A stretch of DNA of 64,000 nt. Origin: Candidatus Bathyarchaeota archaeon. GTDB taxonomy: Archaea > Thermoproteota > Bathyarchaeia > Bathyarchaeales > Bathycorpusculaceae. The DNA lies in assembly GCA_963827165.1 (NCBI GenBank), contig CAWGZR010000005.1, positions 736,001 to 800,000 of the forward strand, written 5' to 3'. Shown here one piece after another: positions 2,108 to 20,426 of this stretch (within the stretch, counting starts at the first letter, position 1; every line of letters begins with the position of its first letter). Under the pieces are notes generated by a model that saw nothing but the letters and a program-made list of their open reading frames with translations, had not been told where the DNA came from and did no database searches. The position numbers and the translations under genes are program-made.

Positions 2108-2181
2108 GCGCCCGGCCAACATTTTTCTTTTCTCCGTTTCATTCTTAAGAAAGATTTCCCTTGCAAAAACAAGCTGTTTTT

Positions 2182-2478: not shown

Positions 2479-2573
2479 GCATCATCTCCAGCCTTGCTAT
2501 TTTAGGCGTAGGTTTACTTAATCAACATTGTCATAGAACATCTTAAAAATGGGGCGACGCAAAAAGGGGCTGG

Positions 2574-3647: not shown

Positions 3648-4760
3648 TCACTTTTCAAGTATCTGTTTTATTGCTCGTACGAGTTTTTGATTGTCTTTTG
3701 CTGAGCGGACTGTGACTCTGAAGTATTTGTCGTCCAAGCCCATGAATGTGCAGCAATCTCGAATCAGCATCAGTTGCGTAGTCAATGCGTCCTTCAGCTT
3801 GGTGGAGGTCACTTTGCCGTTTTGAATTTTTATAAGCAGGAAGTTTGTCACGGACGGGTAAACGTGTAAGCCTTCGATTTCGCCGAGGCTTTTAGCAAGA
3901 GTTTCTCTTTCTTTGGCTATTGTCTTTTTGGTGTTTTCGATGAATTCTGTGTCACTGAACGCCGCAAGAGTTGCGCAACTTGCGAGGCTATTGATGCTCC
4001 AAGGCAACCTGACATTCTCCAGTTTCCCAACCATGTTCGGCGCTGCTAATCCGTAGCCTAATCGTATGCCTGCCATGCCGTAGAACTTTGTAACTGACCT
4101 AATCACAAAAAGGTTGTCGTATTCTTTCACCATGCCTGCCATAGTGGTTTCTTCCCCTTTGTCGGCAAATTCTATGTAGTTTTCGTCTACGCTGAATATT
4201 ACGTCTTTTTTGTGGCAGAAGTCGACCAGCTCCAACACTTCCTCCATAGTGTACAGTCTTCCCGATGGGCTGTGTGGGTTGCAGATGGAGAGGATTTTTG
4301 TTTCAGGTGTTATTGCCTGCTTTATTTTTTCGTTGTCCATGGCAAATCCGTCTCGTAGCTGAAGAAAGTTAACTTCGCTTCCAACTCGCAGTGCTGCCTT
4401 CTCGTACTCGCTGAAGGATGGAATCGGAATTAGCGCCTTGAATCCTCGAGGCAAAATCTCAGTGATGGCGTAGATAAGCTCAATTGAGCCGTCTCCTAAA
4501 ACGACATTTTCTTCCTCGACGCCGTGCCCGACATATTTGGCTATTTCCGCTTTGAACTCGACGGGGTTTGGGTCAGGATAGAACTTTATGAGTTTCGCCT
4601 GCTCTCTCACGGCTTCGACGGCTTTGGGTGATGGTCCGAGGAAATTTATGGGTCCGCTGAACTCTAAGACTTCTTCAATGGGTACTTTGTATTTTCGACT
4701 GAAGCCCCAGATGTCTCCGCCGTGACTGACGAATCTGCGTTCTCTACATTGACCCTGCAA
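3648..4760 (-). CDS. cobD: L-threonine-O-3-phosphate decarboxylase CobD (PLP fold I; HisC-like)
   Basis: N-terminal HGGD typical of CobD, NPHSPSG, VDENY and RSVTKFYGMAGIRLGY (PLP lysine); cob gene context. Confidence 0.75.
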   Translation of the reverse strand: MQGQCRERRFVSHGGDIWGFSRKYKVPIEEVLEFSGPINFLGPSPKAVEAVREQAKLIKFYPDPNPVEFKAEIAKYVGHGVEEENVVLGDGSIELIYAITEILPRGFKALIPIPSFSEYEKAALRVGSEVNFLQLRDGFAMDNEKIKQAITPETKILSICNPHSPSGRLYTMEEVLELVDFCHKKDVIFSVDENYIEFADKGEETTMAGMVKEYDNLFVIRSVTKFYGMAGIRLGYGLAAPNMVGKLENVRLPWSINSLASCATLAAFSDTEFIENTKKTIAKERETLAKSLGEIEGLHVYPSVTNFLLIKIQNGKVTSTKLKDALTTQLMLIRDCCTFMGLDDKYFRVTVRSAKDNQKLVRAIKQILEK

Positions 4761-5394: not shown

Positions 5395-6078
5395 ATGCTG
5401 CTTTCCATAATAATTCCCGTGCACAACGAGGAATTAACGGTAGGCGACATTATCGACCGCGTAAAAGCAGCAGCAAAGCAGACGGGTTTGCAGACGGAAA
5501 TCATTGTTGTGGATGATCATTCTTGTGACAGATCCCTCGCCGTTGCTGAGAAAAAAGGCGTTAGGCTTTACTCGCTTAAGCAACATCTTGGCAAAGGCTA
5601 TGCGTTGCGTGCAGGCTTCGCTAAAGCAAGCGGAGACGTGATAGTCACCATCGACTCGGACGGTAGCCACATGCCTGAAGAACTCTCTGAGATATTAAGG
5701 CCGATCCTTCGTGATCAAGCGGACCTCGTCATCGGATCAAGATATATGAACCACAAGCGGGTGTCAGCACGCAGGCTAAATGCATTCGGTGTACGCATGT
5801 TCAACTACTTCATCCAGCTGTTCACAGGTGTAGCCATCACCGATTCTCAGTCAGGTTACCGCGCCATGACACAGAAAGTCCTTAGAAGCCAAAAGCTCTA
5901 CTCTGGCGAGTACGAAATAGAATCTGAAATGCTGGTTAAAACCGCCAAAAAAAAATTCCGCATCGCCGAGGTTCCCATCAGTTTTGAGCAGAGAACCTAC
6001 GGCAGATCGGGCGTTGATCCCCTGTGGGACGGCTCAAAAATCTTGTTCTGGATAATAATGGCAAGTACGAAGGGTTAG
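5395..6078 (+). CDS. GT2 glycosyltransferase (Dol-P-sugar synthase/DPM1-like)
   Basis: IIIPVHNE, VDDHSCD, GKGYA, DSDGSH, GSRY and DSQSGYR motifs. Confidence 0.92.
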   Translation: MLLSIIIPVHNEELTVGDIIDRVKAAAKQTGLQTEIIVVDDHSCDRSLAVAEKKGVRLYSLKQHLGKGYALRAGFAKASGDVIVTIDSDGSHMPEELSEILRPILRDQADLVIGSRYMNHKRVSARRLNAFGVRMFNYFIQLFTGVAITDSQSGYRAMTQKVLRSQKLYSGEYEIESEMLVKTAKKKFRIAEVPISFEQRTYGRSGVDPLWDGSKILFWIIMASTKG

Positions 6079-6080
6079 CC

Positions 6081-7073
6081 GTGGACGACGAAGCGTTACC
6101 TAAAGTTTCAATCATAGTTGCTTCATACAATAACGAGCAAACCATCGAGGAATGCCTCAAATCCGTCTTGGCCCTCGATTACCCCGCAAGCTCAATCGAA
6201 GTAATCGTGATGGACGGCGCCTCAAAGGACGCCACAGTGAAAAAGGCGCAGCAATACCCCATTAAAGTGGTCTCAATCCGCCTGAACGCGCCTGCCGCTT
6301 ACAACTACGCTATGAAAAACGTCGCGACAAACCAGATTTTAGGTTTCATCGACTCAGACGCGAAAGTCGAGCCCCAATGGCTGCGAAAACTTGTTCCCCG
6401 CTTAAGAGAACCACAAATTGCAGGGGTAAGCGGCAGCATAGAAACCTGGAACGTCGAAAACCCATGGGCCAGAAGCATCGGGTACGAACTCAAAAACCGC
6501 TACCAACGCATAGGCAAATATACGAACCGCATCGCTACCATGAATCTGCTCCTCAAAAAGGCAGTTATCGAGGAAGCTGGCGGTTGGGATGAGAATTTGC
6601 CGAGTCAGTACGATACGGATTTGGGTTTTCGTTTGAGTGCCAAAGGCTACAGGATCGCTTATGAACCAAGTGCGGTTTGTTATCACTACAATAGACCGAC
6701 GCTTACGTCTTACTACAGGCAGCAGCTCCAATATGGGAAGAACACTTTGAAGCTGTATTTCAAACATGGCGGTTTAGCGAAGGGCGATGAAATCACGGAT
6801 TTTGGGATGAACATTCAGCCCGTCCTCATTTTGGCGGTCATTGTCTTTTTCCTTGTAGGGATCGTCCCACCTGTAAGGCTTCTCTGGGCTGGCTCAGCTT
6901 TAATTATAGTCATAATGATTCTCTATTTCAATTATTGTGCGACTCGAATCGTCGTCAAATTCCATGACGCAAACGCTTTCCGTTTGGTTGTCTTGTATTT
7001 TGTTCGTGCATGGGCTTGGTTTGTCGGCGCAACAATAACCACCATTCTGTACGTTGCTGGGAGGCGTAAATGA
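6081..7073 (+). CDS. GT2 glycosyltransferase with C-terminal membrane helices
   Basis: VSIIVASYN, DGASKD, FIDSD, GGWDE, YDTDL and RQQLQY motifs. Probable GTG start at 6081 (ORF track starts at 6024). Confidence 0.9.
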   Translation: MDDEALPKVSIIVASYNNEQTIEECLKSVLALDYPASSIEVIVMDGASKDATVKKAQQYPIKVVSIRLNAPAAYNYAMKNVATNQILGFIDSDAKVEPQWLRKLVPRLREPQIAGVSGSIETWNVENPWARSIGYELKNRYQRIGKYTNRIATMNLLLKKAVIEEAGGWDENLPSQYDTDLGFRLSAKGYRIAYEPSAVCYHYNRPTLTSYYRQQLQYGKNTLKLYFKHGGLAKGDEITDFGMNIQPVLILAVIVFFLVGIVPPVRLLWAGSALIIVIMILYFNYCATRIVVKFHDANAFRLVVLYFVRAWAWFVGATITTILYVAGRRK

Positions 7074-8269
7074 TTCCCCCTAAGGTTTGCTTCATCTCGC
7101 CCGAGTATTGGCCTCTCACAGGAGGCACAGGCTCCTACGTCTACTACCTTTCCAACGAACTCCTCAAGAACGGCTACAAAATCTATGTTGTCACGGCAGG
7201 TAACCAAGCCCAAGACATCCAAGTCAACCCGCGACTAAACGTCTCTTTCCTTAAAATTCCCAAAACCCCCATTGTCAAATCGTTTATGCTTGCGGGCGCA
7301 AGCCACAGAAAACTCCAAAGTGTCCGCGACACCGCCGGCGTAGATGTCACCCATCCGCAGCTCCCGTTAACACCAAATTTTGCGGTGCCACCTAAATTTG
7401 GCAAAACCCTTGTATGCACTGTGCATTCAACGTGGAAAGGTGAAGCGGAAGCCATCCGAGGTGAACCTTACAGCCGCTTAAACGCCAACGAAAAGTTTCT
7501 TGTGAGTTTCAACAGATTTTTGAGGTTTTTTGAAGAAGGCATGCTTCATCGTGCACGAAGAATCATCGCGGTAAGCCACTTCACGAAATGGGAACTAACA
7601 ACCTACTATAAGATTCCTCCGAGCAAAATCCAAGTCATACACAACGGTGTTGACACGCGAAAGTTTCAACCAACCTCGGACAAACGCAAAGTCAAGCAGG
7701 AACTCGGATTCAACCCCGACGACTTGGCCATCGTATCAGTCGGCAGGCTCTACGCACGCAAAGGCTTATTTACGCTCATCGATAGCATGCCAACCGTCGT
7801 CAAAAGTTTCCCAAACGCGAAATTCATCGTTTCAGGCAAGGGACAAAGCGACGAAATGCACAAACTCACCGCCTATGCCGAGAAAATCGGGATGAGAGAC
7901 AACTTGGTTTTCACTGGTTACTATCCTGACAAGAAGTTGCCCCTGCTCTATCAAGCCGCAGATGTATTCGCTTTCAGCACCTTCTACGAACATCACCCCT
8001 TCGCAGTATTGGAAGCGCTTTCCACAGGTTTACCCGTAGTGACGACTCGTGTCGGCGGAATCTCCGAAACTATACAAAACGGCAAAAACGGCTTTTTAGT
8101 CGAGCCGTTCAAACCAAAGCAGTTCGCTGACAGAATCCTCTACCTCCTGGAGCATCCCGCGGAGGCCAAGGAAATGGGGGCGCTTGCGAGAAAAACTGTT
8201 CTTGATGAATATGATTGGCGAATAGTCGTCAAAGATGCCATGAAAGTATACGATAAAGCGCTGAGCTAA
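7070..8269 (+). CDS. GT4 (GT-B) glycosyltransferase
   Basis: PEYWP..GG, AVSH, HNGVD, VGRL..RKG and EHHPFAVLEA motifs. Confidence 0.92.
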   Translation: MIPPKVCFISPEYWPLTGGTGSYVYYLSNELLKNGYKIYVVTAGNQAQDIQVNPRLNVSFLKIPKTPIVKSFMLAGASHRKLQSVRDTAGVDVTHPQLPLTPNFAVPPKFGKTLVCTVHSTWKGEAEAIRGEPYSRLNANEKFLVSFNRFLRFFEEGMLHRARRIIAVSHFTKWELTTYYKIPPSKIQVIHNGVDTRKFQPTSDKRKVKQELGFNPDDLAIVSVGRLYARKGLFTLIDSMPTVVKSFPNAKFIVSGKGQSDEMHKLTAYAEKIGMRDNLVFTGYYPDKKLPLLYQAADVFAFSTFYEHHPFAVLEALSTGLPVVTTRVGGISETIQNGKNGFLVEPFKPKQFADRILYLLEHPAEAKEMGALARKTVLDEYDWRIVVKDAMKVYDKALS

Positions 8270-9216
8270 GCGATTTGAACTGGCTCTTTTCTATATGCCA
8301 TCGTGACCTTCTGGAACAGCTTAACAATATCAAGCGAGCAAAAAAAGAATTTCGTAAGTAACTCATGCTGATAAATCATCATTTGCGCTTTCACTGGTAA
8401 ATCGATCCTAGGCGGCTCAAACCTGTGTTTAACAGTGGCAATAGGCAAACCTTCAAGTCTGATGTCGTCTTCGGCCATGCTCGTTTTGTCGGCAATGTAG
8501 CCGAGATAGGTTTCTTTCCAGTTTAGCCGCATGATTTTGGCGGCTGTAACATCAACTGCTAAAGCGTCGTTGCCAATCAGCATCAACCCCATCTTGACCG
8601 GTTTGCCTTTGGTGGGTCCGTTGCCTTCGATTCCAACTCTTGCATCCATAATTGTCAGTTGCGGTTTGAACAATGTGTAGAGGCGGTAGAAGACTTCAGG
8701 CAAGAATGGATGCAGGTAGATGCGTTTGTTGCTAGGTACGCAGCCAAAGAGGTTTTTGACTGCGCCGCTATAAGCCATAAATTCATGCGTCTTCATTAAA
8801 GGCAAATCCACCACAGCGTCGGCTTCTAGGACGGTTTTGGGTAGGAACAGCCGCTTCAATGGAGTGTTGCTTTGAAATTTTACTTCGACGACTTTGTCTT
8901 CGGAGAGATTTATGACACTGCCGCCTCCAGCTTCCACTGCGGCTTGTACGCCTGTTTTATCGAACGCCGTCCAGCAGGGATAGTTAAACCCATTAGATTC
9001 ACCCACGAGGACCTCGCTGTTGCCGTCACGGAGCAAGCCGACGAGCTGTTTCATCAGCTCTGGGCTTGTCACGACACCCGGCAGGTATTCGGGGTGGCTT
9101 AAGTTAGGTTTTATGAAAATTTTTCCCTTACCTCCCAACCCAGATTTAGCGACGGCTTCCTTAACGATCTGGCTTATGTCATCTGTTGCACGGGAAATCT
9201 TAACGGTTTTCTGCAT
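8266..9216 (-). CDS. DUF362 family protein
   Basis: IKPNL, VGES, PLMKTH, AVKNLFG and GIEGNGP motifs. ATG at 9216 lies just downstream of the radical SAM stop. Confidence 0.85.
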   Translation of the reverse strand: MQKTVKISRATDDISQIVKEAVAKSGLGGKGKIFIKPNLSHPEYLPGVVTSPELMKQLVGLLRDGNSEVLVGESNGFNYPCWTAFDKTGVQAAVEAGGGSVINLSEDKVVEVKFQSNTPLKRLFLPKTVLEADAVVDLPLMKTHEFMAYSGAVKNLFGCVPSNKRIYLHPFLPEVFYRLYTLFKPQLTIMDARVGIEGNGPTKGKPVKMGLMLIGNDALAVDVTAAKIMRLNWKETYLGYIADKTSMAEDDIRLEGLPIATVKHRFEPPRIDLPVKAQMMIYQHELLTKFFFCSLDIVKLFQKVTMAYRKEPVQIA

Positions 9217-9220
9217 TTGT

Positions 9221-10654
9221 TCAGAAATTTTTTGCAGCCTCCGCTTGTTTTCCCATAATGCAACCTGGGTCAGAATTGAACATGTCACCGTTGTGGTACG
9301 CGGCTGAGCGTGCCCTGCAACCACCGCAGACGTACTTGTAAGTGCATTTTCCGCAAGCTCCCTTGAGGTTGCCTCGGTTCCGCAGTGATTTGAATAGGGG
9401 CGCGTTTAACCAGATGTCTTGGAACTTTTCGGTTTTGAGGTTGCCGACTTTCACTGGCAAAAACACGCAGGGATGAACATCTCCTTGAGGCGACAATGAA
9501 CAGTAGAGTCTGCCAGCCCCGCAGCCGCCAATGAAGTCCGCAAGCGGGACAGCTTTCTTGGTTACTTTGACGGTTTGCATGTGAGCCATAGACATGGTGA
9601 CATCGCCTGTGCCCTCAGGTCCCTGACATTGCAGTCCAACTCGGGCCAGCTGAGGCGCAGTGGTAAGAATTGTTGTTTTGCATCCTTTCGACATGCGGGC
9701 GAGGAGGTAATGCATGAGCTTTTCGCGTTCTTCAGGCGACAAGTCATCGTCGTAGTGTTCTTTGCCCCTGCCTGTGGGGATAAAGTTGAAGTAAGTGAAA
9801 CGTTCCGCGCCGACTTCTTCGGCAAAAGAAACAATCGCTGGAAACTCTTCAAAATTGTTCTTAGTCGCCGTCGAAGCAATACACACGCATAAGTCGGCTT
9901 CAACGCAGTTTTTAAGCCCAGCAACTGCCCTGTCAAATGCGCCTGGTACGCCTCGGAAGTCATCATGCGTCTTCGCAGACGCTCCATCAATGCTGATGTC
10001 AAGGTAATTGACTTTGGCTTGCTTGAGCTTTTGCACGTTTTCCTTGGTCAGCAAAGTGCCATTGGTAGCTACCGAAACGTAAAGTCCTCGGTCAGCAGCA
10101 TACCGAGCAACTTCAAAGAAGTCTTTGCGGGTCAAGGGTTCGCCGCCTGAGAAAGCCAATGCAGTCACCCCCGCGTCTGCAAGCTGATCAACAACCGTCT
10201 TTGCCTGCTCTGTCGTAAGTTCCTTCTCGTCTTCAGCGCCACTGTTCGAGTAGCAGTGTTTGCATCTGAGGTTGCATTTGTGAGTGAAATCCCAAACGAT
10301 AAGGAAGGGGGCATAAAGGGAAATGGGTTTTTTAATGCCAATATAGCCGAAGCTTTTAGTCAAGTTCAAAACCGCTCGGCGTGCGTACGGATCAGAGAGG
10401 AGCTTCTCAACTTTTTCACGTTTTATGTTTAGGCTACGCCTAAGGAACTCAACCCAGAAACCTATGATCTGCGAGTACAGGATGCTGCACTTTGGGCAGA
10501 TGTGCTCTGTTTTTCCCGAGTAAGAATCCAACGCCGCTTCCAGCACGGTTCTGCCACAAGCTTGGCATTTCCGAAGCGATAACCGTAGCATCCGCTTAGT
10601 CATAGGCAGCGTTATCACCGCATTCCAGAAGCTATCATGGCTAAGCAGACTCAT
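9221..10654 (-). CDS. Radical SAM/SPASM protein with N-terminal CxxC...CxxC extension (candidate GMGT synthase Gms-like)
   Basis: APFLIVWDFTHKCNLRCKHC, SGGEP and ATNG motifs. SPASM cysteines GCGAG..C...PC...CGKC...CGGC. N-terminal CQAC/CPKC and DPYARR. Radical SAM/SPASM is secure; the Gms assignment is inference. Confidence 0.85.
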   Translation of the reverse strand: MSLLSHDSFWNAVITLPMTKRMLRLSLRKCQACGRTVLEAALDSYSGKTEHICPKCSILYSQIIGFWVEFLRRSLNIKREKVEKLLSDPYARRAVLNLTKSFGYIGIKKPISLYAPFLIVWDFTHKCNLRCKHCYSNSGAEDEKELTTEQAKTVVDQLADAGVTALAFSGGEPLTRKDFFEVARYAADRGLYVSVATNGTLLTKENVQKLKQAKVNYLDISIDGASAKTHDDFRGVPGAFDRAVAGLKNCVEADLCVCIASTATKNNFEEFPAIVSFAEEVGAERFTYFNFIPTGRGKEHYDDDLSPEEREKLMHYLLARMSKGCKTTILTTAPQLARVGLQCQGPEGTGDVTMSMAHMQTVKVTKKAVPLADFIGGCGAGRLYCSLSPQGDVHPCVFLPVKVGNLKTEKFQDIWLNAPLFKSLRNRGNLKGACGKCTYKYVCGGCRARSAAYHNGDMFNSDPGCIMGKQAEAAKNF

Positions 10655-10720: not shown

Positions 10721-11344
10721 CTAAACATAGACTTTGCTTTTCAGGATTTTTTCCGCTATTTCCAGGTCTTTAAGCGTGTTAATGTTAAGAAGCACTTCAA
10801 GTTCCTGAGTGATCAGGGCGTTTGTTTCTATCTTTCCTTCCATTTGGCATTTTGCGCCGTTGATGACGTTTACACCCGAGACAGCGTACCAATGTCCATT
10901 GTACTCGTCGGTGGAATCAACGGAGAGCCCCAACGATTCGCGTGCCTTGATCGGCACAAAAACCGCGTAGAAGTCAGTGTTGCATTCTTGGAACTGGCCA
11001 ATGATTTTGTCAAGGAAATTGCCTGTGATAGCTGGAGAATCCGCTGGAATCGTCAAAACAGGACCCATCAACTTGGCTTCACGCGTTGCCTGCTTCAAAT
11101 CATTATGATATCCTTTAGCGTCGGTTCGCAGAACCTTCCATCCCCTGCTTAGACAGTGCTTCTCCGTTTCAGGCGTATTCGGGCTAGTTACCACATAAAA
11201 TTCGGAAACCTTTTCGGCACTCGCGACTGCTTCCCCCACCCAGTCTAGTAACGGTTTACCCAGAAAAGGCAAAAGCGGCTTCTCAACCGGTAACCCGATG
11301 CGTATGCCTTTGCCGCCAGCCATAATCAACGCGGGAACCTTCAT
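10721..11344 (-). CDS. cobY: CobY-like NTP transferase (adenosylcobinamide-phosphate guanylyltransferase paralog)
   Basis: MAGGKG.R, EKPL, SPNTP.T, GY..DL and NINT..DL motifs; translationally coupled to a cobS paralog. Confidence 0.8.
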   Translation of the reverse strand: MKVPALIMAGGKGIRIGLPVEKPLLPFLGKPLLDWVGEAVASAEKVSEFYVVTSPNTPETEKHCLSRGWKVLRTDAKGYHNDLKQATREAKLMGPVLTIPADSPAITGNFLDKIIGQFQECNTDFYAVFVPIKARESLGLSVDSTDEYNGHWYAVSGVNVINGAKCQMEGKIETNALITQELEVLLNINTLKDLEIAEKILKSKVYV

Positions 11345-12171
11345 AGAAGAATTAACACGCCCGCAAACAAAATAAGCGTAACTGCGCGAGCCACTTCATT
11401 GGTGGCACCAATCATGTCGCCTGAAACCCCCCCGAAAATCTTTTCTGCAACTTTCTCCATGACCAAAGCCACTGGGATGCTGACCAAAACCAACCCAACC
11501 GCGACTAAGCCCACAATGGGTTTGCCTATCAATGCGAAATAGGGGAAAACAATCAATATGCAGAGTATGTAGGCGATTATGTTGAGTTTGTTTTTTGCCT
11601 TCTGCAGGAAAATTGAGCCTAACCCTTTATGTGTAGGCTTTCCAATCCAAACGATTGTGACCATGGACAGTTTGGCCGACAGTTCTGCGGCGAGGATGGC
11701 TCCGAAAGCGTAAAGCGGGCTTATCAAAAACAAGCCTGCAAAAGCAGCGAACTCGACAACCAACGCCAACACCGCGCCCCAGTAAGTTACAGTCCAAGCA
11801 TGCGCGACCATTTTGCGGTCATGAAGGCTTCTCAGTCCGAAGGCGTTGCCTAGGTCGATTAGGCCGTCAAAATGTTGGAGTCCTGTGAGAACAAGCAGAA
11901 AAGCCACTGTCATCGCGGCGACCGCAAGCTTCGACAATGTGTCAATTGGCAAGGCAACAAGAGGGTTAACTAAACCAAGCAGGAATTGGACAATGACATT
12001 TGCCCCAAGAAAATAGGTGCCTGCAAGCGTGCCAATTAAGCCGCCGATGATGGGAAAAAGGTAAACGTGCTCCGCCGTCGTGAAGATAAAGTCTTCTTTT
12101 CCCCCTGTAGGGATAATTGTTAGGAAAGACAGCAAATCCCTAAAAGTTTTTATAGCTTTCTCAGGGGACAT
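11341..12171 (-). CDS. cobS: CobS-like membrane phosphotransferase (divergent cobamide 5'-phosphate synthase paralog)
   Basis: SFLTIIP, FP.IG, TGLQHFDGLID and GGVSGDMIGATNE motifs. The downstream conserved DG and MxD motifs are substituted. Confidence 0.78.
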   Translation of the reverse strand: MSPEKAIKTFRDLLSFLTIIPTGGKEDFIFTTAEHVYLFPIIGGLIGTLAGTYFLGANVIVQFLLGLVNPLVALPIDTLSKLAVAAMTVAFLLVLTGLQHFDGLIDLGNAFGLRSLHDRKMVAHAWTVTYWGAVLALVVEFAAFAGLFLISPLYAFGAILAAELSAKLSMVTIVWIGKPTHKGLGSIFLQKAKNKLNIIAYILCILIVFPYFALIGKPIVGLVAVGLVLVSIPVALVMEKVAEKIFGGVSGDMIGATNEVARAVTLILFAGVLILL

Positions 12172-12209
12172 ATACCCTACACTAATTAAAAGGAAATATA
12201 GACTTTGTC

Positions 12210-13148
12210 GTGGTAGCTATGGGGGAACTTAAGGGGAGAAAAATACTTGTAACGGGTGGAGCAGGGTTCATCGGATTCCATCTATGTACGCGTCTTTCAG
12301 CTTTATCTTCTGATTTAACGATCTACGATGACTTGTCAAGCGGCAAAATGGAAAACGTCAAAGACGTTGGCAAAGCAAAGTTTGTAGAAGGCAACATTCT
12401 GGATCAAAAAAAGCTGCTTTCACTGGAAAAGCCAGATTTGATTTACCATCTAGCAGCCCAAGTAGTTGTCCCCTACAGCATGGAAAACCCAATGATAGAT
12501 TTTGAAACCAACGCCAAAGGAACCCTGCAAGTTCTGGAAAAAGCCCGCAAAGACGACGCTAAACTCGTCTTTTCATCAAGCGCAGCAGTTTACGGAAATC
12601 CAAGTGTGTTTCCAACACCCGAAACCTACGGGTTCCATCCATTTTCGTGCTACGGATTATCCAAGGTAGTTGGCGAAGAATACTGTGAAATGTACCGTGA
12701 CCAATACGGGTTAGACGTCACCATAATGAGGTTCGCTAACGTCTATGGATTAAGGTGCCACGGTGTAATTCACGACTTTTTAGATAAAATAGCCAAAAAC
12801 CCGAACAAACTTGAGATAATCGGTACGGGGTTGCAGTCCCGCGATTTCGTGCATGTTTCAGATGTGGTTGACGCACTCATAACAGTGGGCTCAGAAGAAT
12901 TCACTAATGGCAGAACCTACAACTTAGGCTATGGGACAACGATAAAAATAATCGATCTCGCCCACCTTATGCTTAAAATTCTAAACTTACAAGATAAAAC
13001 GGTCGTGACAACAACAGGTGTCTCTTGGCAGGGCGACGTAACTACAATATGGTTTGATAATACCAAGGCTAAGAGAGAGTTGAAGTGGAATCCCAAAGTA
13101 AGCCTTGAAGACAGTATCAAAGAAGTCATTGCTGACAGGAAACTATAA
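12210..13148 (+). CDS. NAD-dependent NDP-sugar epimerase/dehydratase (GalE-like extended SDR)
   Basis: TGGAGFIG, HLAA, SSSAAVYG, YGLSK, NVYG and RDFVHVSD motifs. Confidence 0.93.
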   Translation: MVAMGELKGRKILVTGGAGFIGFHLCTRLSALSSDLTIYDDLSSGKMENVKDVGKAKFVEGNILDQKKLLSLEKPDLIYHLAAQVVVPYSMENPMIDFETNAKGTLQVLEKARKDDAKLVFSSSAAVYGNPSVFPTPETYGFHPFSCYGLSKVVGEEYCEMYRDQYGLDVTIMRFANVYGLRCHGVIHDFLDKIAKNPNKLEIIGTGLQSRDFVHVSDVVDALITVGSEEFTNGRTYNLGYGTTIKIIDLAHLMLKILNLQDKTVVTTTGVSWQGDVTTIWFDNTKAKRELKWNPKVSLEDSIKEVIADRKL

Positions 13149-14035
13149 TGGCTGCTCCCGCCCCGGCCAGAGGGCTAATCGCTCTTCTGAGGCTCCCCTA
13201 CTGGCTGATGACAGGCGGCTTATCTCTACTAACCGCGTTCGCAATCGCAAAAAACCCCGCGAACCTAAGCGCACAAACTATTCTGCTGATTTTCTTTTCA
13301 ATGGCATTCATCACGTCGGCGGGCTTCGCGATAAACGATTATTTCGACCGAGAAAGTGACGCCCTTATCAAGCCGAAACGTCCCATACCGTCGGGGGCCT
13401 TATCTTTGAAGCAGGTGATGGCTGTTTCAGGCGTTTTGTTCGCTGCTGGATTAGCTATGTCCTTTTTCATTAACTGGTTAAGTTTCGCAATAATCGCAGC
13501 AGACTCTGCTTTGCTTCTAGTTTACTCAACGCTTGTTAAACGCAAGTCAGGGTTCGCAGCCAACGTTATGGTTGGGATTTTGACGGGCACAGCTTTTATG
13601 TACGGCGAAGCCACAATATCGAGTCCTCCAGCAGTAACCATAATCTCCTTAAGTCTTTACCCCATAGCTCTGGGCACTATCGGCGGCAACGTACTTCGCG
13701 ATGTGCTAAGTCTTGACGGCGACCGAAAAACTGGTTACCCCACACTTCCACAGAAAATCGGCATCGGCAATTCGGCGAAGGCTGCCGCTGGGTTATTCCT
13801 GTTGACCGGTTTGCTTGCGCCTTTGCCTTTTTTCGTAGGCAACTTTAACTTTTACTATTTGATACCCATCGTGGCTTGGAGTGTCCTCTTAATCTACTCG
13901 TCTGTTCGTCTAGTTACCGCTGCTTCAACCGTTGCAAACGTGAGAAAATATGAACGAATAGTAACTATGTCGATGATTCTGCTCCCGCTAGCGTTGATTC
14001 TTCAGGCGGCATCCCACTTGATCGGAGGGCTGTAA
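13148..14035 (+). CDS. UbiA prenyltransferase, DGGGP synthase-like
   Basis: NDYFDRESD...KPKRPIPSG first Asp-rich motif, YS..KR and GD...GY.TLP; multiple transmembrane helices. Confidence 0.85.
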   Translation: MAAPAPARGLIALLRLPYWLMTGGLSLLTAFAIAKNPANLSAQTILLIFFSMAFITSAGFAINDYFDRESDALIKPKRPIPSGALSLKQVMAVSGVLFAAGLAMSFFINWLSFAIIAADSALLLVYSTLVKRKSGFAANVMVGILTGTAFMYGEATISSPPAVTIISLSLYPIALGTIGGNVLRDVLSLDGDRKTGYPTLPQKIGIGNSAKAAAGLFLLTGLLAPLPFFVGNFNFYYLIPIVAWSVLLIYSSVRLVTAASTVANVRKYERIVTMSMILLPLALILQAASHLIGGL

Positions 14036-15508
14036 GTGAGCGAAACCAAAAGCATCTGCCCAGAATGCCAGAAAAAAATAGACGCCCAACTACGGCAAGC
14101 CAACGGTAAAATAAAAATCACCAAGCATTGCCCAGAACACGGCGAATTCGAAGCTACACACTGGCAAAGCACACCCGTCTTTAATCACATGCAAACCTAC
14201 GATCAATTTCAGTACCTGGGAGATTTAAACGCTTCAAAAAACCCTGAAGGTTGCCCCTACGTCTGCGAAACTTGCAACAAGCATGCTTCAGGAACAGTTA
14301 TTGGAGTAATCGACGTGACGAAACGTTGCAACCTTCGTTGCGCAATCTGCTTCTCAACATTTCCCGAGCAAGGTAACGATTACGAGCCAACCAAGGAACA
14401 TCTCATAAAAATGCTTGAGTTCGTGAGCCAAGCAAACCCCAAGCCTCCTGCCATTCTGTTTTCAGGCGGAGAACCCCTTGAACGCGAGGACATGCCCGAA
14501 ATTGTCGGCGCCGCCCACAGACTAAAGTTCATGACTATTCTAGCAACCAACGGGACTCATTTGGTTGACACCCCGGGGCTAGCAAAGAAGCTCAAAGACA
14601 AAGGCTTGAACATTGTTTATTTGTCATTTGACAGCTTCCATGACGATTTTAACAAGAAGATTAGAGGAAAGGCGCTGCTTGAGGAAAAACTCAAAGCAAT
14701 AGAGGTTTGCCGCAAGCATGACATGGAAATCATCTTGGTTAATACGTTGATGAAAAGTCTTAACGATAAGGAAGTTGGCGACATGATACGGTTCGCCGCT
14801 AAAAACACGGACATAGTGCGGGGCTTAATCTTCCAGCCAATAGCCTTCACCGGTAGAGCCACGGAGAACCCTTTCCGCGAAAACTTCCGCGAATGGTCCT
14901 TTGCCGAAGACGTTGAAAAACAAACAGGCGGCGAAATCAAAGCAACCGATTTGTATCCCATGTCAGTTATGACGTCGCCGATCAAGATAATGCGAAAATT
15001 CATGAAAAAGCCTTGGCCCCTGTTTTCATGCAGCCCGCAGTGTGGAATTGTAAACTGGATTTACGTTTCTAAAGAGGGCAAAATGTTCCCTATCAACCGG
15101 TTTGTCAACTTTGATCGTTTCTTCTCAACCATTAGAAAAACTGCCGAGTCCGCCGAATCCAAAGGCAAACTCTCGCTGCTCTCTTCACTGTTTATGGCGT
15201 CTATGCTTTCGATGGATATGCTTCTTGTGACGCAAGAAGTGGGTATGCTTACGCTCCTGAATTCGATCATGCGTATGCATCTTTCACCTTCATATCAGTC
15301 ACTTGGCAAAATCCGAAGAAGAATCTTTCTTTTGGGCTGCATGGCTTTTATGGATTCATATAATTTCGATGTAAACCGCGTAAGACGCTGTGTAGTCCAC
15401 TACATTACACCAGACCTGAAAATCATACCTTTCTGCGCCTACAACAATATCCACCGGGTGGCAATCGAAAAAGAATATGCGGAAAAGCAAAAGAAAACTC
15501 AAGCTTGA
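14036..15508 (+). CDS. tes: Tetraether synthase (Tes/GDGT-MAS, MJ0619-family) radical SAM homolog
   Basis: CPEC...CPEHG metal site, CPYVCETC auxiliary cluster, CNLRCAIC SAM cluster, and C-terminal CSPQCG, MAFMD..NFD, RCVVHY and IPFCAYN. Confidence 0.82.
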   Translation: MSETKSICPECQKKIDAQLRQANGKIKITKHCPEHGEFEATHWQSTPVFNHMQTYDQFQYLGDLNASKNPEGCPYVCETCNKHASGTVIGVIDVTKRCNLRCAICFSTFPEQGNDYEPTKEHLIKMLEFVSQANPKPPAILFSGGEPLEREDMPEIVGAAHRLKFMTILATNGTHLVDTPGLAKKLKDKGLNIVYLSFDSFHDDFNKKIRGKALLEEKLKAIEVCRKHDMEIILVNTLMKSLNDKEVGDMIRFAAKNTDIVRGLIFQPIAFTGRATENPFRENFREWSFAEDVEKQTGGEIKATDLYPMSVMTSPIKIMRKFMKKPWPLFSCSPQCGIVNWIYVSKEGKMFPINRFVNFDRFFSTIRKTAESAESKGKLSLLSSLFMASMLSMDMLLVTQEVGMLTLLNSIMRMHLSPSYQSLGKIRRRIFLLGCMAFMDSYNFDVNRVRRCVVHYITPDLKIIPFCAYNNIHRVAIEKEYAEKQKKTQA

Positions 15509-16029
15509 TTTGTAACTTGAATTGGCAAAACGCAGTAGTCATACGTAAACTGGTATGTGCCGCCATCGGCGGGGTTGAATGTGTACAGTTCAAAAACAAC
15601 CCAGTAGCTGCCGACCTGATTCTCTGTGACTGTGATTGACTGATGCCAGCTTGCTCCATTCTTTAGCGTCATGTTGCATGTTTCGGCGGCTGGGGCGTTC
15701 ACTGGAAAAGAGTTAAGATTCGGGGTTATTTTCACCAAAACTTGGTACTGAACGGTCCAACCCATGTTGTTAACGACGGTTAATGGGACGGTAAAGGTGC
15801 TATTCTGATTGGCGACTAAAAGCTGTGGGTAATTCGCCGCTTTATTTTGTGCGTCAAGCAGGTAAATCGTGCTGTATCCTTCAGGCGCCGGCTTAAAGAT
15901 AACGTAGTAGCCGACAAGCATAGATGAGATGATGATCAAGGCGAGAGCGATGGCGACTAAGTAGCCTTTGTCATCGTTTAAGCCGATTTTCTCTCCAATG
16001 CTTTTGACACGTTCTAACTGTATCCGCAT
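15499..16029 (-). CDS. DUF1616-like membrane-anchored extracellular protein
   Basis: One TM helix, then EGYSTIYLLD...A.NYP and beta-rich VVFELY domain. Confidence 0.7.
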   Translation of the reverse strand: MRIQLERVKSIGEKIGLNDDKGYLVAIALALIIISSMLVGYYVIFKPAPEGYSTIYLLDAQNKAANYPQLLVANQNSTFTVPLTVVNNMGWTVQYQVLVKITPNLNSFPVNAPAAETCNMTLKNGASWHQSITVTENQVGSYWVVFELYTFNPADGGTYQFTYDYCVLPIQVTNQA

Positions 16030-16708
16030 CTAAAAATCCCTTGAATATAGTGCTAAATATTTCTATGCCTGACTTAAATGGTTTAAGTTTGGTCTTCCCA
16101 TATTTGCGCGGTTTGTAAGTCGTGGGGATTTCAACCATATTGTATCCGACTTTGGCGAATTGGACCAGCATTTCGGTGGCAAACGCCATGTCTCCTTCTA
16201 CCAATGGAACGTTGTCGATGCATTCATGTGATATTGCCCTGAACCCTGATTGGGTGTCGCTCAGTAGTTGGCTGTAAAAGAAGTCGTAGACCAAGGTTAT
16301 GATTTTGTTTCCGATAAAATTCGTGAATCCCATGGCTTTTTTCGGGTCAAACATGCGAGTGGCTAAAACCATGTCTGCGTCTTTCTCAAGCATTCTTTCA
16401 ACCAAGCGGTTGATGTGTTTGACCTCGTAGGTTCCGTCGCCGTCAACCATGACTATTATGTTTCCCTTCGCGTTTTTCATACCTGTTCGAAGTGCTATTC
16501 CGTAACCGCGTCTTGGCTCGAGAATTAGCCTGCAAAAACCTGTGTCTTTAATGAGCTCCATTGTCCCGTCTGTAGAGTTGCCGTCGACGACGATGATTTC
16601 GTTTGGGTAAGCTAGCTCTTTGTGGATGGTGTTTACTGCTTCAAGTATGTTTCCTGCCTCGTTGAGTGTCGGAATGACTACCGAAACCAATTCGACTTTT
16701 GATGTCAT
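15971..16708 (-). CDS. GT2 glycosyltransferase (DPM1-like)
   Basis: VVIPTLNE, VDGNSTDGT, GYGIA, DGDGTY and DTQSGFR motifs. Confidence 0.92.
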   Translation of the reverse strand: MTSKVELVSVVIPTLNEAGNILEAVNTIHKELAYPNEIIVVDGNSTDGTMELIKDTGFCRLILEPRRGYGIALRTGMKNAKGNIIVMVDGDGTYEVKHINRLVERMLEKDADMVLATRMFDPKKAMGFTNFIGNKIITLVYDFFYSQLLSDTQSGFRAISHECIDNVPLVEGDMAFATEMLVQFAKVGYNMVEIPTTYKPRKYGKTKLKPFKSGIEIFSTIFKGFLDADTVRTCQKHWRENRLKR

Positions 16709-16751
16709 GGCTAACTCCTATCTTGAAGGCTATACTGTTTTCGCATCATGA

Positions 16752-17909
16752 TTAAATAAGCTCTTCGTATATTTCCACGAGAGATTCAACGTTTCGCTCC
16801 CAGCTATACTTTTCTTCCACCGCTGCTCGAAGCTCCAACCCACACGAGGATAACTCAGCATGGGAATATTCTAAGACTGCCCTAGCCATTGGCTCCGGCT
16901 GATTAGGCGGCACCAAAGTCCCACAATTTTCCATCAGAATTTCCCTTATTCCACCAACGTCTGTAGCTACAACCGGCAAGCCACATGCCATGGCTTCAAG
17001 CGCAACCAAAGGCAAGCCTTCCCCAGATTTTGACGGCAACACAAAGAAGTCAGCCGCGTTATAGCAAAGGGGCAAATCAACGTCGCTGACAAAACCCGTC
17101 AACCGAAAATTATTTTCTATTCCCAGTTGCCGAATTCTTTCTTGAACCCCCTTTTGGTCTGGTCCCTTTCCAACAACAAGGAAAACCAAATTAGGATTCT
17201 TCTTGACTGCAAGGTTCGCGCTTTCAATCAATGTGTCGATGCCGTTCTTGTAAACAAGTCTCCTCACCGTTAAGGCCACAACCGCGTTTTTGGGCATCCT
17301 AAATTTAATTCTCATTTCTTCGCGTTTTCCTGGCAGATGCCTGAAATGGCGCAGGTCCACCCCGTTGTGGATGACTTTGATTTTGTTTGGTTTTGCACCT
17401 AAACCAAGAACGTACTGTTTGGTTGCGTTACTTACAGCGATGATTCTGTCTGCTTCTCTTAGCGTCTCTTTCCCCACAGATAGGTCGTTTAGGCGTTCCA
17501 CGTTGTCGAACATATTGTCGTACTGGATGAACGTGTTGTGCTGGGTCAAAACGAACGGTTTGTTGTATCCTTTTGCAAGTTTAGCAGCGATCAACGAGGT
17601 CAAATATGGGTGGCCGTGTGCGTGGACTATGTCGGCTGCGTTTACGGCTTTAAGGAAAGTTTGTAGGCTTGTCGGGGTCGGGATAGAGTAAGGTATGCCG
17701 AGGCGGAATCCGGTGTTTAACGATTCATAGCACTGGACGTCTATGCCATCAACGGTGTAAGTTTTGGGGGTGTTGATGCGGTTGGTCACAACCATGGGCT
17801 TAAAGTTTAGGTTCATCAGCCGCTTGCTCTGTTCATAAACAACCTTTTCAATCCCGCCAACATGAGGCAGAAAAGTATGCGTAACAATGCATAAACTTGT
17901 TTGAACCAT
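16752..17909 (-). CDS. GT4 (GT-B) glycosyltransferase
   Basis: PHVGGIE, HAH, AVS, HNGVD and EGLPLVALEAMACG motifs. Likely ATG at 17909. Confidence 0.92.
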   Translation of the reverse strand: MVQTSLCIVTHTFLPHVGGIEKVVYEQSKRLMNLNFKPMVVTNRINTPKTYTVDGIDVQCYESLNTGFRLGIPYSIPTPTSLQTFLKAVNAADIVHAHGHPYLTSLIAAKLAKGYNKPFVLTQHNTFIQYDNMFDNVERLNDLSVGKETLREADRIIAVSNATKQYVLGLGAKPNKIKVIHNGVDLRHFRHLPGKREEMRIKFRMPKNAVVALTVRRLVYKNGIDTLIESANLAVKKNPNLVFLVVGKGPDQKGVQERIRQLGIENNFRLTGFVSDVDLPLCYNAADFFVLPSKSGEGLPLVALEAMACGLPVVATDVGGIREILMENCGTLVPPNQPEPMARAVLEYSHAELSSCGLELRAAVEEKYSWERNVESLVEIYEELI

Positions 17910-18636
17910 GGAGCCCAACTGCGTAACCTCCACAACCAACATACGATAATAAGCCTTATGGTAAATCCCCAACCAAGCGCGGAAGATAGAAAAATTTCAG
18001 ACTGAAGTGTCTAACCAAGAAACGGGCGTTCTGAAGCCAATGTTTATAAAACTCTTGGAAGGTGACTAATATTAAATCCGTAATTCGTTTCATGAGCGTA
18101 AATTGAACCTGGATGTTCAAAATTTCATTTTATTCGCTCTTGATGGGGCTTGAATCGGGGTTGAATTTGTAAAATATTGCCAAACTGCGCCTTTATCTTA
18201 CGAAAAAGTGAACTTGTGCACCATGGTTTTGTGGTGACTTTGAACTTGGGTGACGTTGATTTGCAGTGAAAACGCGGTAACTTGACTACGTTCGTAAAAG
18301 TGGTCTGAGTTGAGAGATTGCGCCGCCTTAAAATCGTTTTCAACAGCCACTCAGATGTGAACCGCTGACTAAATAGTAATGCTTATATGAAAAGGTTGGA
18401 TAAACCAACCAGTCGTGGGCTGAATAATTTGTTGAACATCGAGAAAAGACCGTTTGTCCCAATCAACTTTCTAACAACTGACCGATTATCTGGATGTTTG
18501 ATGGCTAAAACCCCGTTTTGTTGCCCAAATTGTTCTGAGATTAACACTTCAAATCATTTGCAGTTTACATTCACTTGGACCCAACGAAGAACAGAAGGTA
18601 AATCGTGAAAGAATATTTAGGGAGGAAGAAATTAAA

Positions 18637-19323
18637 ATGAAAGTTGTTGCGGCTTGGAGCGGCGGAAAAGACAGCGCCTATGCAGAGTACTTGGCAACCC
18701 AGCGGGGCCTCGAAGTAGTCAACATTTTGACCATGATGATGAGCAAGGAAAAATCAAACTTCCACATGATACCCGCAGAGATTCTGGATGCACAGTCAGA
18801 CGCCATAGGCATCCCCATAGTGAAGCAGCAAGCCACCCCAAAAACATACGAAGATGACTTCAAAGCTGCGCTGCGGCGTTTCAAAACTGACGGCGCCGAA
18901 GGCTTGGTGACAGGTGACATCTACGAGGTAGCTGGACACGAACAGGGTTGGCTGGGCAGAGTGCTCAAAGAAGTCGGTTTACAACCGATAAAGCCGCTGT
19001 GGATGCTTGACACGAAGCAGATTTACCTTGACTACCTGAAAACAGGGTTTAAGGCAACAGTGGTTAGAACCAACCTGGAGAAGCTGGGCGTAGAGTGGCT
19101 TGGGCGGGTGCTTGACAGAAAATTCTATGACGACATCCTCAAACTCGGCAACGTTGATCCGTGCGGCGAAGGCGGCGAATACCACACTGTTGTGACAGAT
19201 GGACCGACATTTAAGAAAAAGATTGAAATTCTAGAAACACAAAGACACAAGCTAGACAGCGGCTTCGGATACCTCGAAATCAAAAAGTTCGAAGTCAAGC
19301 CGAAAGGCAAGGTAAAACCGTAG
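18637..19323 (+). CDS. DUF71/Dph6-like PP-loop ATP pyrophosphatase (B12-associated type)
   Basis: WSGGKDS, TGDI, PLW and DPCGEGGEYHT motifs; first gene of the cobT-cobS-cobY operon; GGAGG RBS upstream. Confidence 0.9.
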   Translation: MKVVAAWSGGKDSAYAEYLATQRGLEVVNILTMMMSKEKSNFHMIPAEILDAQSDAIGIPIVKQQATPKTYEDDFKAALRRFKTDGAEGLVTGDIYEVAGHEQGWLGRVLKEVGLQPIKPLWMLDTKQIYLDYLKTGFKATVVRTNLEKLGVEWLGRVLDRKFYDDILKLGNVDPCGEGGEYHTVVTDGPTFKKKIEILETQRHKLDSGFGYLEIKKFEVKPKGKVKP

Positions 19324-19324
19324 A

Positions 19325-20425
19325 ATGGACCAATCACTCGATGTAATAATTGCCAATAATGAGCTGAAAGCGAAGGCTTTTCTGGATGAAGTGGCAGGCA
19401 AAAACCCACTTTTCATATGCACAATCGGCACCACGGAAACCGGCAAAATCGCAGGGATATCTGCGGCTGGAGCAAACCCCGAGTTCACGGACTACACTCC
19501 GCCAGCCGATGCTGAACTGCTTCTCTTAGGCAAATGCAAATCCATCAACGGTGTTCCTATAACTCCAGACGGAATCCCCACGCCTGGGTTGATCACGAGG
19601 TCGGCTTTGCAACTCGCTAACATTCCCGTGCTCATAGCCAGCGGCGGGGTAAAGGTGAAGCCTCAGATTCCTTTTTTGGATTTGGGTGGAAATCCAGGAA
19701 GGGACATTCGAAGCGGCAATGCAGTTGACAATGTTGCGGAAGTTATTGAACGCGCTAAAGTTGCTGGACAAAACCTGGCAAAAGCCGTGGATTACCTTGT
19801 GATTGGCGAAAGCATTCCAGGCGGAACAACAACCGCGCTTGGCGTCTTATCTGCTCTGGGAGTGAAAGCAGAAGGAAAAGTAAGCAGCACGCTACCTCAA
19901 AATCCTCACAGTTTGAAGGCTGAAACGGTTCGGTCGGGTTTGACAGCTGCAGGCGAAGATTTCGGCACTTTAGCGAAGGATCCTATTCGGGCTATTTCCT
20001 GTGTTGGCGACCCCATGATGGCGGCCTTTACGGGTTTGGTTATTGGGGCATCAAGTCAGGTTCCTGTTTTGATGGCGGGTGGCACTCAGATGAGCGCTGT
20101 CTTGGCCCTGATTAACGCTTTGGAACCCGATGTTCTGTGCAACGTGGCTGTGGGCACAACTCGCTGGGTTGCGAAGGACAAGTCATCTGACCTTAAAGGA
20201 ATTGTGAAGCAGTTCTGCGACGTGCCGATTTTGGCGGCTGACCTTAACTTTTCAGAATCCCGTTTTCCAGGCTTACAAATCTATGAGACGGGTCTAGTCA
20301 AAGAAGGGGTCGGCGCAGGCGGAGCTTCTATCGCTGCGATGGCGAAGCTTGGTGGCGCTGTAACGGCTGACCTATTGCTTAAAGAGATAGAGCGCAATTA
20401 TGGTTCGCTTATGGGTTTGAAGTGA
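19325..20425 (+). CDS. cobT: Archaeal-type base phosphoribosyltransferase CobT
   Basis: GISAAG, TPPADAE, PTPG.IT, GESIPGGTTTA, GGTQM and KEGVGAGG motifs. Confidence 0.88.
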   Translation: MDQSLDVIIANNELKAKAFLDEVAGKNPLFICTIGTTETGKIAGISAAGANPEFTDYTPPADAELLLLGKCKSINGVPITPDGIPTPGLITRSALQLANIPVLIASGGVKVKPQIPFLDLGGNPGRDIRSGNAVDNVAEVIERAKVAGQNLAKAVDYLVIGESIPGGTTTALGVLSALGVKAEGKVSSTLPQNPHSLKAETVRSGLTAAGEDFGTLAKDPIRAISCVGDPMMAAFTGLVIGASSQVPVLMAGGTQMSAVLALINALEPDVLCNVAVGTTRWVAKDKSSDLKGIVKQFCDVPILAADLNFSESRFPGLQIYETGLVKEGVGAGGASIAAMAKLGGAVTADLLLKEIERNYGSLMGLK

Positions 20426-20426
20426 G

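Follow-up and report, generated by a model that had tools for sequence, protein, structure and literature searches.

The locus described here raises the question of what a second cobamide synthase (CobS) with substituted catalytic motifs does in an archaeon that also carries a canonical one. It lies in a 64-kb stretch of DNA (G000:C5:736001-800000; hereafter the window) from the 3.1-Mb, 94.5% complete genome of a Candidatus Bathyarchaeota archaeon. The diverged copy, CobS2, adjoins a nucleotidyltransferase gene, CobY2, and the open reading frames (ORFs) of the two overlap by 4 bp. The canonical copies, CobS1 and CobY1, are located in the same window. CobS2 is a conserved, diverged paralogue and not a decaying copy. 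We give about even chances to the reading that CobS2 and CobY2 are part of a second, clade-restricted corrinoid salvage and loop-assembly line, which contains a changed CobS and serves an island rich in B12-binding radical SAM genes.

11341-12171 (-), CobS2, 276 amino acids, CobS-family protein, diverged cobamide-synthase paralogue with HxDxxxDxxN replacing HxDxxxDxxD
10721-11344 (-), CobY2, 207 amino acids, MobA-like nucleotidyltransferase of the CobY type
18637-21814 (+), canonical set of a DUF71 (PF01902) protein, archaeal CobT, CobS1 and CobY1 (CobT/CobS1/CobY1 at 19325-21814, CobS1/CobY1 at 20427-21814)

CobS2, a conserved and diverged paralogue of cobamide synthase

CobS2 is 35% identical to CobS1 (E 1e-37) and scores 89.3 bits against PF02654 (cut-off 23.2), for which CobS1 reaches 136.2 bits. 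The TIGR00317 cut-off of 110 is barely exceeded by CobS2 (110.5 bits) and cleared by CobS1 (151.9 bits). An earlier reading of this DNA, made from the sequence alone, had proposed a second CobS with substituted motifs within 10721-12171, and its ORFs, the paralogy and the strings quoted for the two copies are all confirmed. The strings are HHTDGLLDFGDG and MHDQLTGAGG in CobS1, and QHFDGLIDLGNA and AHAWTVTYWG in CobS2, and both proteins contain GGVSGD..GATNE.

CobS proteins are integral membrane enzymes, and the available part of a study of Salmonella CobS (PMC8092220) reports all CobS homologues with the motif HxDxxxDxxD. The same source states that the substitutions D82A, D86A, and D89A each abolish growth, and its authors suggest that cytoplasmic loop 2 contacts adenosylcobinamide-GDP. 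In the window CobS2, loop 2 reads H-F-D-G-L-I-D-L-G-N and departs from the HxDxxxDxxD motif. In an alignment of 18 CobS2 sequences (the window copy and 17 from syntenic loci of relatives) with 12 CobS1 sequences, the loop reads G-L-Q-H-[F/T]-D-G-L-[I/V]-D-x-G-N-A in every CobS2 and H-H-T-D-G-L-L-D-F-G-D-[G/A] in every CobS1. The third Asp of the motif, present in 12/12 canonical copies, is replaced by Asn in 18/18 CobS2 orthologues, in all of which the Asn aligns with D89 of Salmonella CobS. The second block, M-H-D-Q-[L/F]-T-G in CobS1, is rebuilt as H/Q-x-W-x-V in CobS2. Its Asp position is occupied by Asp in all 12 canonical sequences and in none of the 18 CobS2 sequences (A 10, V 5, R 2, E 1), and all 18 have a Trp after this position. 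N109 and W126 are both invariant among the CobS2 sequences. Residues H100, D102, D106, E163, K167, G251, D252, N258, and E259 are retained. The loop 6 motif GxxGDxxG, which has an essential Asp according to the available part of PMC8092220, reads GVSGDMIG in CobS2, and G251 and D252 do not vary across an alignment of 80 sequences. Simple decay, which the sequence-only reading had allowed for in case the substitutions were not kept among orthologues, is ruled out: there are no stop codons in CobS2 from 24 genomes, the identity spans 41-100%, and both the Asn and the absence of the second-motif Asp are conserved in 18/18.

A scan of 1.84 billion representative proteins with CobS2 returned 802 matches at E <= 0.001. 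At E <= 1e-30, about 16 of the representatives match, all of them CobS2-type sequences or fragments. The column of the third Asp, evaluated in 126 full-length sequences (125 representatives and the window CobS1), contains Asp in 118, Glu in 2, and Asn in 6, and the six sequences with Asn are all members of the CobS2 clade. A tree of 155 CobS sequences unites the 22 CobS2-type rows in a single clade with a Shimodaira-Hasegawa-like approximate likelihood ratio (SH-aLRT) support of 99 and a long stem of 0.6, and CobS1 groups with the copies of other Bathyarchaeia families. The CobS2 clade has no outside sister among the 155 rows, and the deep forks of the tree are poorly supported. Horizontal import of a foreign canonical set is unsupported by this topology.

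The AlphaFold2 model of CobS2, calculated from an 80-sequence alignment, is all-helical (predicted local distance difference test score 95.7, predicted template modelling score 0.93). A sequence search of CobS2 against the PDB gave no match, and a Foldseek search of the model against the PDB gave nothing at E <= 0.001. The best match identified by VIA-align is an intramembrane CDP-diacylglycerol synthetase (PDB: 4q2e), with a Z-score of 8.0 and a root mean square deviation of 4.4 Å over 169 residues; it is an interesting lead to a similarly acting enzyme, with values that lie within the chance range for helical bundles.

The same 201 genomes of the class Bathyarchaeia were searched for CobS2 and CobY2, as well as for the CbiB2 and Tes2 types described below; the resulting co-occurrence counts come from related genomes and do not represent independent events. 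With thresholds of at least 41% identity and at least 149 bits, CobS2 is present in 24 genomes and as one contig-edge fragment (G148), which together make 25/201. The set is confined to two families of one order, family f1 (genera g1, g3, g6, g7, and g8), which includes the genus of the window, and family f5 (genus g20). No genome has CobS2 without a canonical-type CobS. CobS is absent from ten genomes of f1 and f5; CbiB is likewise absent from nine of these, and the remaining one, G151, carries both CbiB1 and CbiB2. Only the canonical CobS type is present in 32 genomes of other families.

CobY2 and the exchange of CobY copies

CobY2 is 33% identical to CobY1 (E 1e-38), and both match PF12804, CobY2 with 60 bits. 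It aligns over residues 4-203 with the solved CobY of Methanocaldococcus jannaschii (PDB: 2mzb, 3rsb) at E 4.8e-17, compared with 4e-27 for CobY1, and the bit scores to 2mzb are 65 and 98, respectively. Both copies are below the cut-offs of TIGR00454 (174.7; CobY2 124.1, CobY1 155) and NF045495 (250; CobY2 93.3, CobY1 127.6). Since CobY1 also fails to reach them, the curated cut-offs do not discriminate CobY2. All CobY2 orthologues contain MAGGKGxR. The sequence-only reading had singled out GKGIR and ADSP as marks of CobY2, which we reject as diagnostic features: GKG is followed by I, K, S, R, or T, depending on the orthologue, and ADSP varies to SDVP, SDLP, and ADLP. The signatures that do hold throughout the clade are GYHxDL, STDEY..WYAVSG, and GEGKIET. 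CobY2 is most likely an ordinary guanylyltransferase that would be interchangeable with CobY1.

Two irregularities were observed in CobY2 sequences. Contigs of soil X2 and permafrost X9 carry an extra C behind window position 10727, two codons before the CobY2 stop, which means either a strain-dependent C-terminal tail of CobY2 or a one-base error in the window. The CobY2 match at G127:C1:119771-120382 is flagged with one in-frame TAA, and the ORF call at this locus (L037) is also irregular.

CobY2 is found at 60% identity or more in 20 f1 genomes, and a form with 37-43% identity is present in five f5 genomes. A CobY gene adjoins CobS2 in all 20 and all five of these genomes, respectively. The order is CobS2 then CobY2 in 16/20 f1 genomes, and in the other four (G102, G133, G172, and G094, all from the genus of the window) CobS2 is followed by a CobY1-type gene. 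In these swapped genomes CobY2 is located between CobS1 and CbiB2, and CobT was confirmed upstream in G102, which gives a textbook operon for loop assembly in the order CobT-CobS1-CobY2-CbiB2. The exchange is visible at G102:C105:30894-34411 and L049:9740-11208, and also in G133, G172, and G094. The CobY copies have changed places while the flanking genes stayed, and the event resembles gene replacement rather than inversion.

The f5 genomes contain a single CobY (5/5), which adjoins CobS2 and belongs to the CobY2 clade. In the CobY tree the f5 protein is sister to f1 CobY2 (support 100/99), and CobY1 is placed with the CobY proteins of other Bathyarchaeia families (100/99). CobU was not found in the four f5 genomes in which it was sought. 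The f5 genomes retain CobT (4/4), CbiZ, two copies of CbiB, and a further CobS with the canonical HxDxxxDxxD motif. This canonical-motif CobS lies outside the grouping of other Bathyarchaeia CobS1 in the 155-row tree, on a long and poorly resolved branch, and may therefore have been acquired from elsewhere. In G090 (L060:2038-4345) it is located beside a B12-binding protein and an MtrH-like methyltransferase.

The swap and the sole CobY of f5 contradict the idea of CobY2 and CobS2 as a fixed, co-evolving pair. CobY2 appears able to serve as the only CobY of a cell, and CobS2 is never the only CobS, which points to CobS2, not CobY2, as the functionally changed partner.

The duplicated gene set and its island

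CobS2 and CobY2 are surrounded in the window by genes of lipid, glycan, and corrinoid metabolism, including a short-chain dehydrogenase/reductase (SDR) and a prenyltransferase, UbiA2, related to digeranylgeranylglyceryl phosphate (DGGGP) synthase:

671-2107 (+), B12-binding radical SAM protein, followed by a small ORF and a DUF71 paralogue at 2574-3305 (-); edge of the upstream island
3648-4760 (-), CobD2, threonine-phosphate-decarboxylase-like pyridoxal phosphate enzyme (TIGR01140 278.7 bits, cut-off 290.55)
5395-6078, 6024-7073, and 7070-8269 (+), glycosyltransferases GT2c, GT2a, and GT4a, syntenic in f1 and f5
8266-9324 (-), DUF362 protein, downstream of CobY2 on the same strand
9221-10654 (-), AhbD/NirJ-like radical SAM/SPASM protein, downstream of CobY2 on the same strand
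12172-12209, intergenic spacer of 38 bp between the divergent CobS2 and SDR genes
12210-13148 (+), SDR epimerase/dehydratase, from profile matches
13148-14035 (+), UbiA2, DGGGP-synthase-like paralogue, from profile matches
14036-15508 (+), Tes2, tetraether-synthase paralogue (Tes-family radical SAM), from profile matches
15499-17972 (-), DUF1616 protein, GT2b (AglJ/dolichyl-phosphate-hexose-transferase-like), and GT4b

The second set consists of CobD2, CbiB2, CbiZ2, CobY2, and CobS2. CbiB and CbiZ are corrinoid-specific families. The window genome contains two copies each of CobS, CbiB, and CbiZ, and two CobD-like genes. CbiB1 is located on contig C4 beside CobD1, which passes TIGR01140. CbiB2 (G000:C5:723480-724475) is positioned 12 kb upstream of the window, passes the cut-offs of TIGR00380 and NF002281, and is flanked by B12-binding radical SAM genes. 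CobD2 is 37% identical to CobD1 and matches Salmonella CobD (PDB: 1lc5) at E 1e-48. The scores of CobD1 and CobD2 against the Salmonella protein are near-equal (171.5 and 169.4 bits), and the choice of substrate is therefore not distinguishable by match score. The sequence-only reading had counted a CobD as part of the system, and CobD2 indeed accompanies the cluster: it is syntenic in all six f1 loci that reach that far, where the glycosyltransferases lie between CobD2 and CobY2, and stands directly beside CobY in 4/4 f5 loci. CbiZ2, like CbiB2, belongs to the same island as CobS2, and at least two copies of CbiZ were found in each of the five other island genomes tested. CobT is single, with one tblastn match in the window genome and one match to TIGR00303 per genome in five other island genomes.

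Among the 201 genomes, CbiB2 (at least 57% identity) and Tes2 (at least 46% identity) each occur in 25. The Tes2 genomes are the same as those with CobS2 if the G148 fragment is counted, and the canonical Tes type is found in 171/201. The CbiB2 genomes differ from those with CobS2 by two, G151 and G166.

The spacer between CobS2 and the GTG start of the SDR gene measures 38 bp (47 bp if the next ATG is the start), in agreement with the sequence-only reading, which had described CobS2 and CobY2 as transcribed divergently from an epimerase-ubiA-tes unit across a gap of about 40 bp. It contains two A/T-rich boxes approximately 27-30 nucleotides upstream of each start, which are candidate back-to-back promoters for leaderless transcripts. 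SDR-UbiA2-Tes2 directly neighbours CobS2 in divergent orientation in 13/13 f1 loci, and lies 2.1-5.4 kb from CobS2 on the same strand in 4/4 f5 loci. The AhbD/NirJ-like gene directly follows the CobY gene in 8/13 f1 loci. Two contigs of a peat RNA library show full identity to segments of the SDR gene (12271-12537) and of the Tes2/DUF1616 junction (15329-15550), and none falls on CobS2 or CobY2; such contigs cannot show absence, and the library may contain DNA. One X2 contig skips 384 bases in Tes2 (14069-14454), with only 22 letters on its shorter side, and is probably an assembly artefact. An Rfam scan of the whole window found no family reaching its gathering score.

The 38 kb upstream of the window contain at least six B12-binding radical SAM genes, and a seventh is located at window position 671-2107. 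The upstream island (G000:C5:700001-736000; L056, L057) together with window positions 671-3305 contains three additional DUF71/PF01902 ATP-pyrophosphatase paralogues, which often adjoin the radical SAM genes. A role in B12 salvage has been predicted for DUF71 proteins encoded beside cob genes, according to the available part of PMC3541065. CbiB2, an Amidohydro_3 gene, HemN-like and SPASM radical SAM proteins, methyltransferases, and pyrroloquinoline quinone-type propeller proteins complete the upstream island, and the closed f5 genome G090 has the same assortment. Tes2 is about 40% identical to the main Tes of the genome (C5:395586-397004) and scores 463 bits against NF045702, compared with 664 bits for the main copy. 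UbiA2 is likewise the paralogue of a better-scoring DGGGP-synthase-like gene located elsewhere in the genome. B12-binding radical SAM enzymes of Bathyarchaeota modify tetraether lipids, as stated in the accessible part of a preprint (10.1101/2025.10.20.683597), and their action offers a simple explanation for the presence of cobamide and lipid genes in one island. No direct chemical link between CobS2 and lipids is needed where B12 supply, B12-binding radical SAM enzymes, and a second tetraether module are combined.

A gene for an AP_endonuc_2 or xylose-isomerase-like TIM-barrel protein (21811-22689, -) is located between CobY1 and the genes of an energy-coupling factor transporter, CbiQ/CbiO. 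The cobamide-remodelling enzyme CbiR of Akkermansia reportedly belongs to the AP endonuclease 2 superfamily, and because of this relationship the gene may encode a remodelling phosphodiesterase.

Possible functions of CobS2 and known systems

The set is tied to corrinoids by the CobY swap, the sole CobY2-type CobY of f5, the scores of CbiB2 above the CbiB cut-offs, and the duplication of both CbiB and CbiZ. These observations favour the second corrinoid line. In such a line CobY1 and CobY2 would both make GDP-activated corrinoid, and CobS2 would form a phosphodiester from a GDP-activated donor and release GMP. CobS2 keeps most of the catalytic frame of a cobamide synthase (H, two Asp, E..K, GxxGD, and NE), and its donor-linker or acceptor site would be altered by N109, W126, and the loss of the Asp and Gly of the second motif. 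Such a line would supply the B12 enzymes of the island with a cobamide-like cofactor of a second kind. The duplicated CobD, CbiB, CobY, CobS, and CbiZ are the proteins that make, attach, activate, transfer, and remove the aminoalcohol-phosphate linker, and CobT is single; a different linker is therefore an attractive version of this reading. The sequence-only reading had offered two options, and the comparative evidence favours its different cobamide over its lipid headgroup of the Kennedy type, which is disfavoured by the swap, by f5, and by the duplicated CbiB and CbiZ.

Several points weigh against a second corrinoid line. CobS2 may not make cobamides at all, because it is without the residue whose replacement by Ala kills Salmonella CobS. 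There is no second CobT in the six island genomes checked to supply a second lower-ligand nucleotide. The tightest and most conserved neighbours of CobS2 are lipid and glycan genes, not corrinoid genes, and CobS2 and CbiB2 are 18-87 kb apart in most genomes. G166 (92% complete) has CobS2, and CbiB2 was not found in it; G151 (90% complete) has CbiB2 and no CobS. The product, substrate, and transcript of CobS2 are themselves predictions.

A tentative alternative, of limited probability, places CobS2 outside classical cobamide synthesis. A GDP-activated phospho-linker that carries either a corrinoid or only the aminoalcohol of CobD2 would be joined to a membrane acceptor made by SDR-UbiA2-Tes2 and the glycosyltransferases. 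The result would be a lipid-anchored corrinoid cofactor or an aminoalcohol-phosphate glyco-tetraether. Either one would be the first case of the CobS fold serving a non-cobamide or membrane-tethered function.

The version with a Kennedy-like headgroup is unlikely. CobD2 would provide an aminoalcohol phosphate, CobY would activate it to a nucleoside diphosphate aminoalcohol, and CobS2 would transfer the phospho-aminoalcohol to a hydroxyl group on the glycolipid or glycan that SDR-UbiA2-Tes2 and the glycosyltransferases assemble. Gene order provides real evidence for this version: SDR-UbiA2-Tes2 stays close to CobS2, and the trio of CobD2, CobY, and CobS2 stays embedded in the lipid and glycosyltransferase cluster in f1 and f5 despite rearrangement, and there is no CobT2. 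Cj1436 of Campylobacter jejuni is presumably a relative of CobD. In the available part of PMC12409886, the capsule of this bacterium exemplifies such chemistry outside B12: Cj1436 decarboxylates serine phosphate, and Cj1438 carries out the ATP-dependent amidation of a sugar acid with ethanolamine phosphate. The loop suggested to bind the corrinoid donor (PMC8092220, available part) has also lost its third Asp in CobS2. However, the CobY copies are swapped in 4/20 f1 genomes, f5 has CobY2-type CobY only and yet retains the remaining genes of cobamide loop assembly, CobS2 never occurs without canonical CobS, and the duplicated CbiB and CbiZ would have no role.

Plain redundancy is more doubtful still. 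CobS2 would be a second ordinary cobamide synthase that catalyses the same reaction as CobS1, for example in de novo synthesis as opposed to salvage. Its scores above the PF02654 and, barely, the TIGR00317 cut-offs and the nine retained frame residues agree with this. The same protein, however, has Asn at the position of D89, essential in Salmonella (PMC8092220, available part), a second motif rebuilt with an invariant Trp, and a long stem branch, and f5 keeps an extra canonical CobS beside CobS2 but no second CobY.

We regard a corrinoid-lipid conjugate as very improbable. CobS2 would join GDP-corrinoid to a membrane acceptor from SDR-UbiA2, possibly with Tes2, in place of the CobT ribotide, and thus produce a membrane-anchored, base-off corrinoid. 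Under this scheme the shared CobY and the duplicated corrinoid genes would be compatible with the close linkage of CobS2 to UbiA2 and with a single CobT, and the scheme would suit an integral membrane enzyme such as CobS (PMC8092220, available part). No such molecule is known, however, UbiA2 scores as a DGGGP-synthase-like prenyltransferase and not as a phosphoribosyltransferase, and the duplication of CobD, CbiB, and CbiZ would be left unexplained.

Least probable of all is a non-catalytic CobS2 acting as a membrane dock or regulator for loop-assembly or B12-binding radical SAM proteins: the loss of an Asp essential in Salmonella CobS (PMC8092220, available part) speaks for it, but the remaining near-invariant frame residues are kept and N109 and W126 are invariant in 18/18, which fits a changed rather than a dead active site.

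CobS is the least understood enzyme of B12 assembly; it has no solved structure, and its membrane location is unexplained (PMC8092220, available part). CobS2 is a natural, long-conserved variant in which an Asp essential in Salmonella is replaced, accompanied by its own copies of CobD, CbiB, CbiZ, and CobY, and thus a ready probe of the loop 2 motif. The second corrinoid line points to some abundant soil and sediment archaea as makers or remodellers of two different corrinoids. The island joins B12 supply, B12-binding radical SAM enzymes, and a second tetraether synthase, and bears on the source of unusual archaeal tetraether biomarkers. A CobS2 that acts on a lipid or glycan would represent a new class of headgroup or cofactor-anchoring transferase. 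We found no publication on a CobS paralogue in Bathyarchaeia in a search that left out subscription journals and supplements.

CobS2 belongs to the same family (PF02654/TIGR00317) and length class as the Salmonella and archaeal CobS and is, like them, a predicted polytopic helical membrane protein. It shares with them the H and first two Asp of loop 2, the membrane-helix E..K, GxxGDxxG, and NE, as well as an adjacent CobY gene. Unlike them, it has Asn for the third Asp, H-x-W-x-V-[T/S/N] for the [K/H/R]-D-x-x-x-G block, and an insertion of about 20 residues after the second helix, and it occurs in two Bathyarchaeia families only, always with a canonical CobS and divergently paired with SDR-UbiA-Tes. 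The CDP-alcohol (Kennedy), LicD, and C. jejuni capsule systems (the last from the available part of PMC12409886) resemble the locus in formal chemistry, in which an aminoalcohol phosphate is made, activated, and transferred to a hydroxyl or carboxylate. They belong, however, to different protein families, and there is no comparative evidence linking CobY2 to small aminoalcohol phosphates. The full length of CobY2 can be aligned with M. jannaschii CobY (MJ1117; PDB: 3rsb, 2mzb). CobY2 keeps the GGKGxR loop and the C-terminal NINT region, and it differs by its clade-specific signatures and by a score below that of CobY1. Sulfurospirillum multivorans makes norcobamide by a route in which the linker is altered by a CobD homologue, and only CobD is known to be specialised there. 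The locus described here resembles that route in the use of a CobD-family decarboxylase paralogue for a putative second type of cobamide, and differs from it in that CbiZ, CbiB, CobY, and CobS are duplicated as well.

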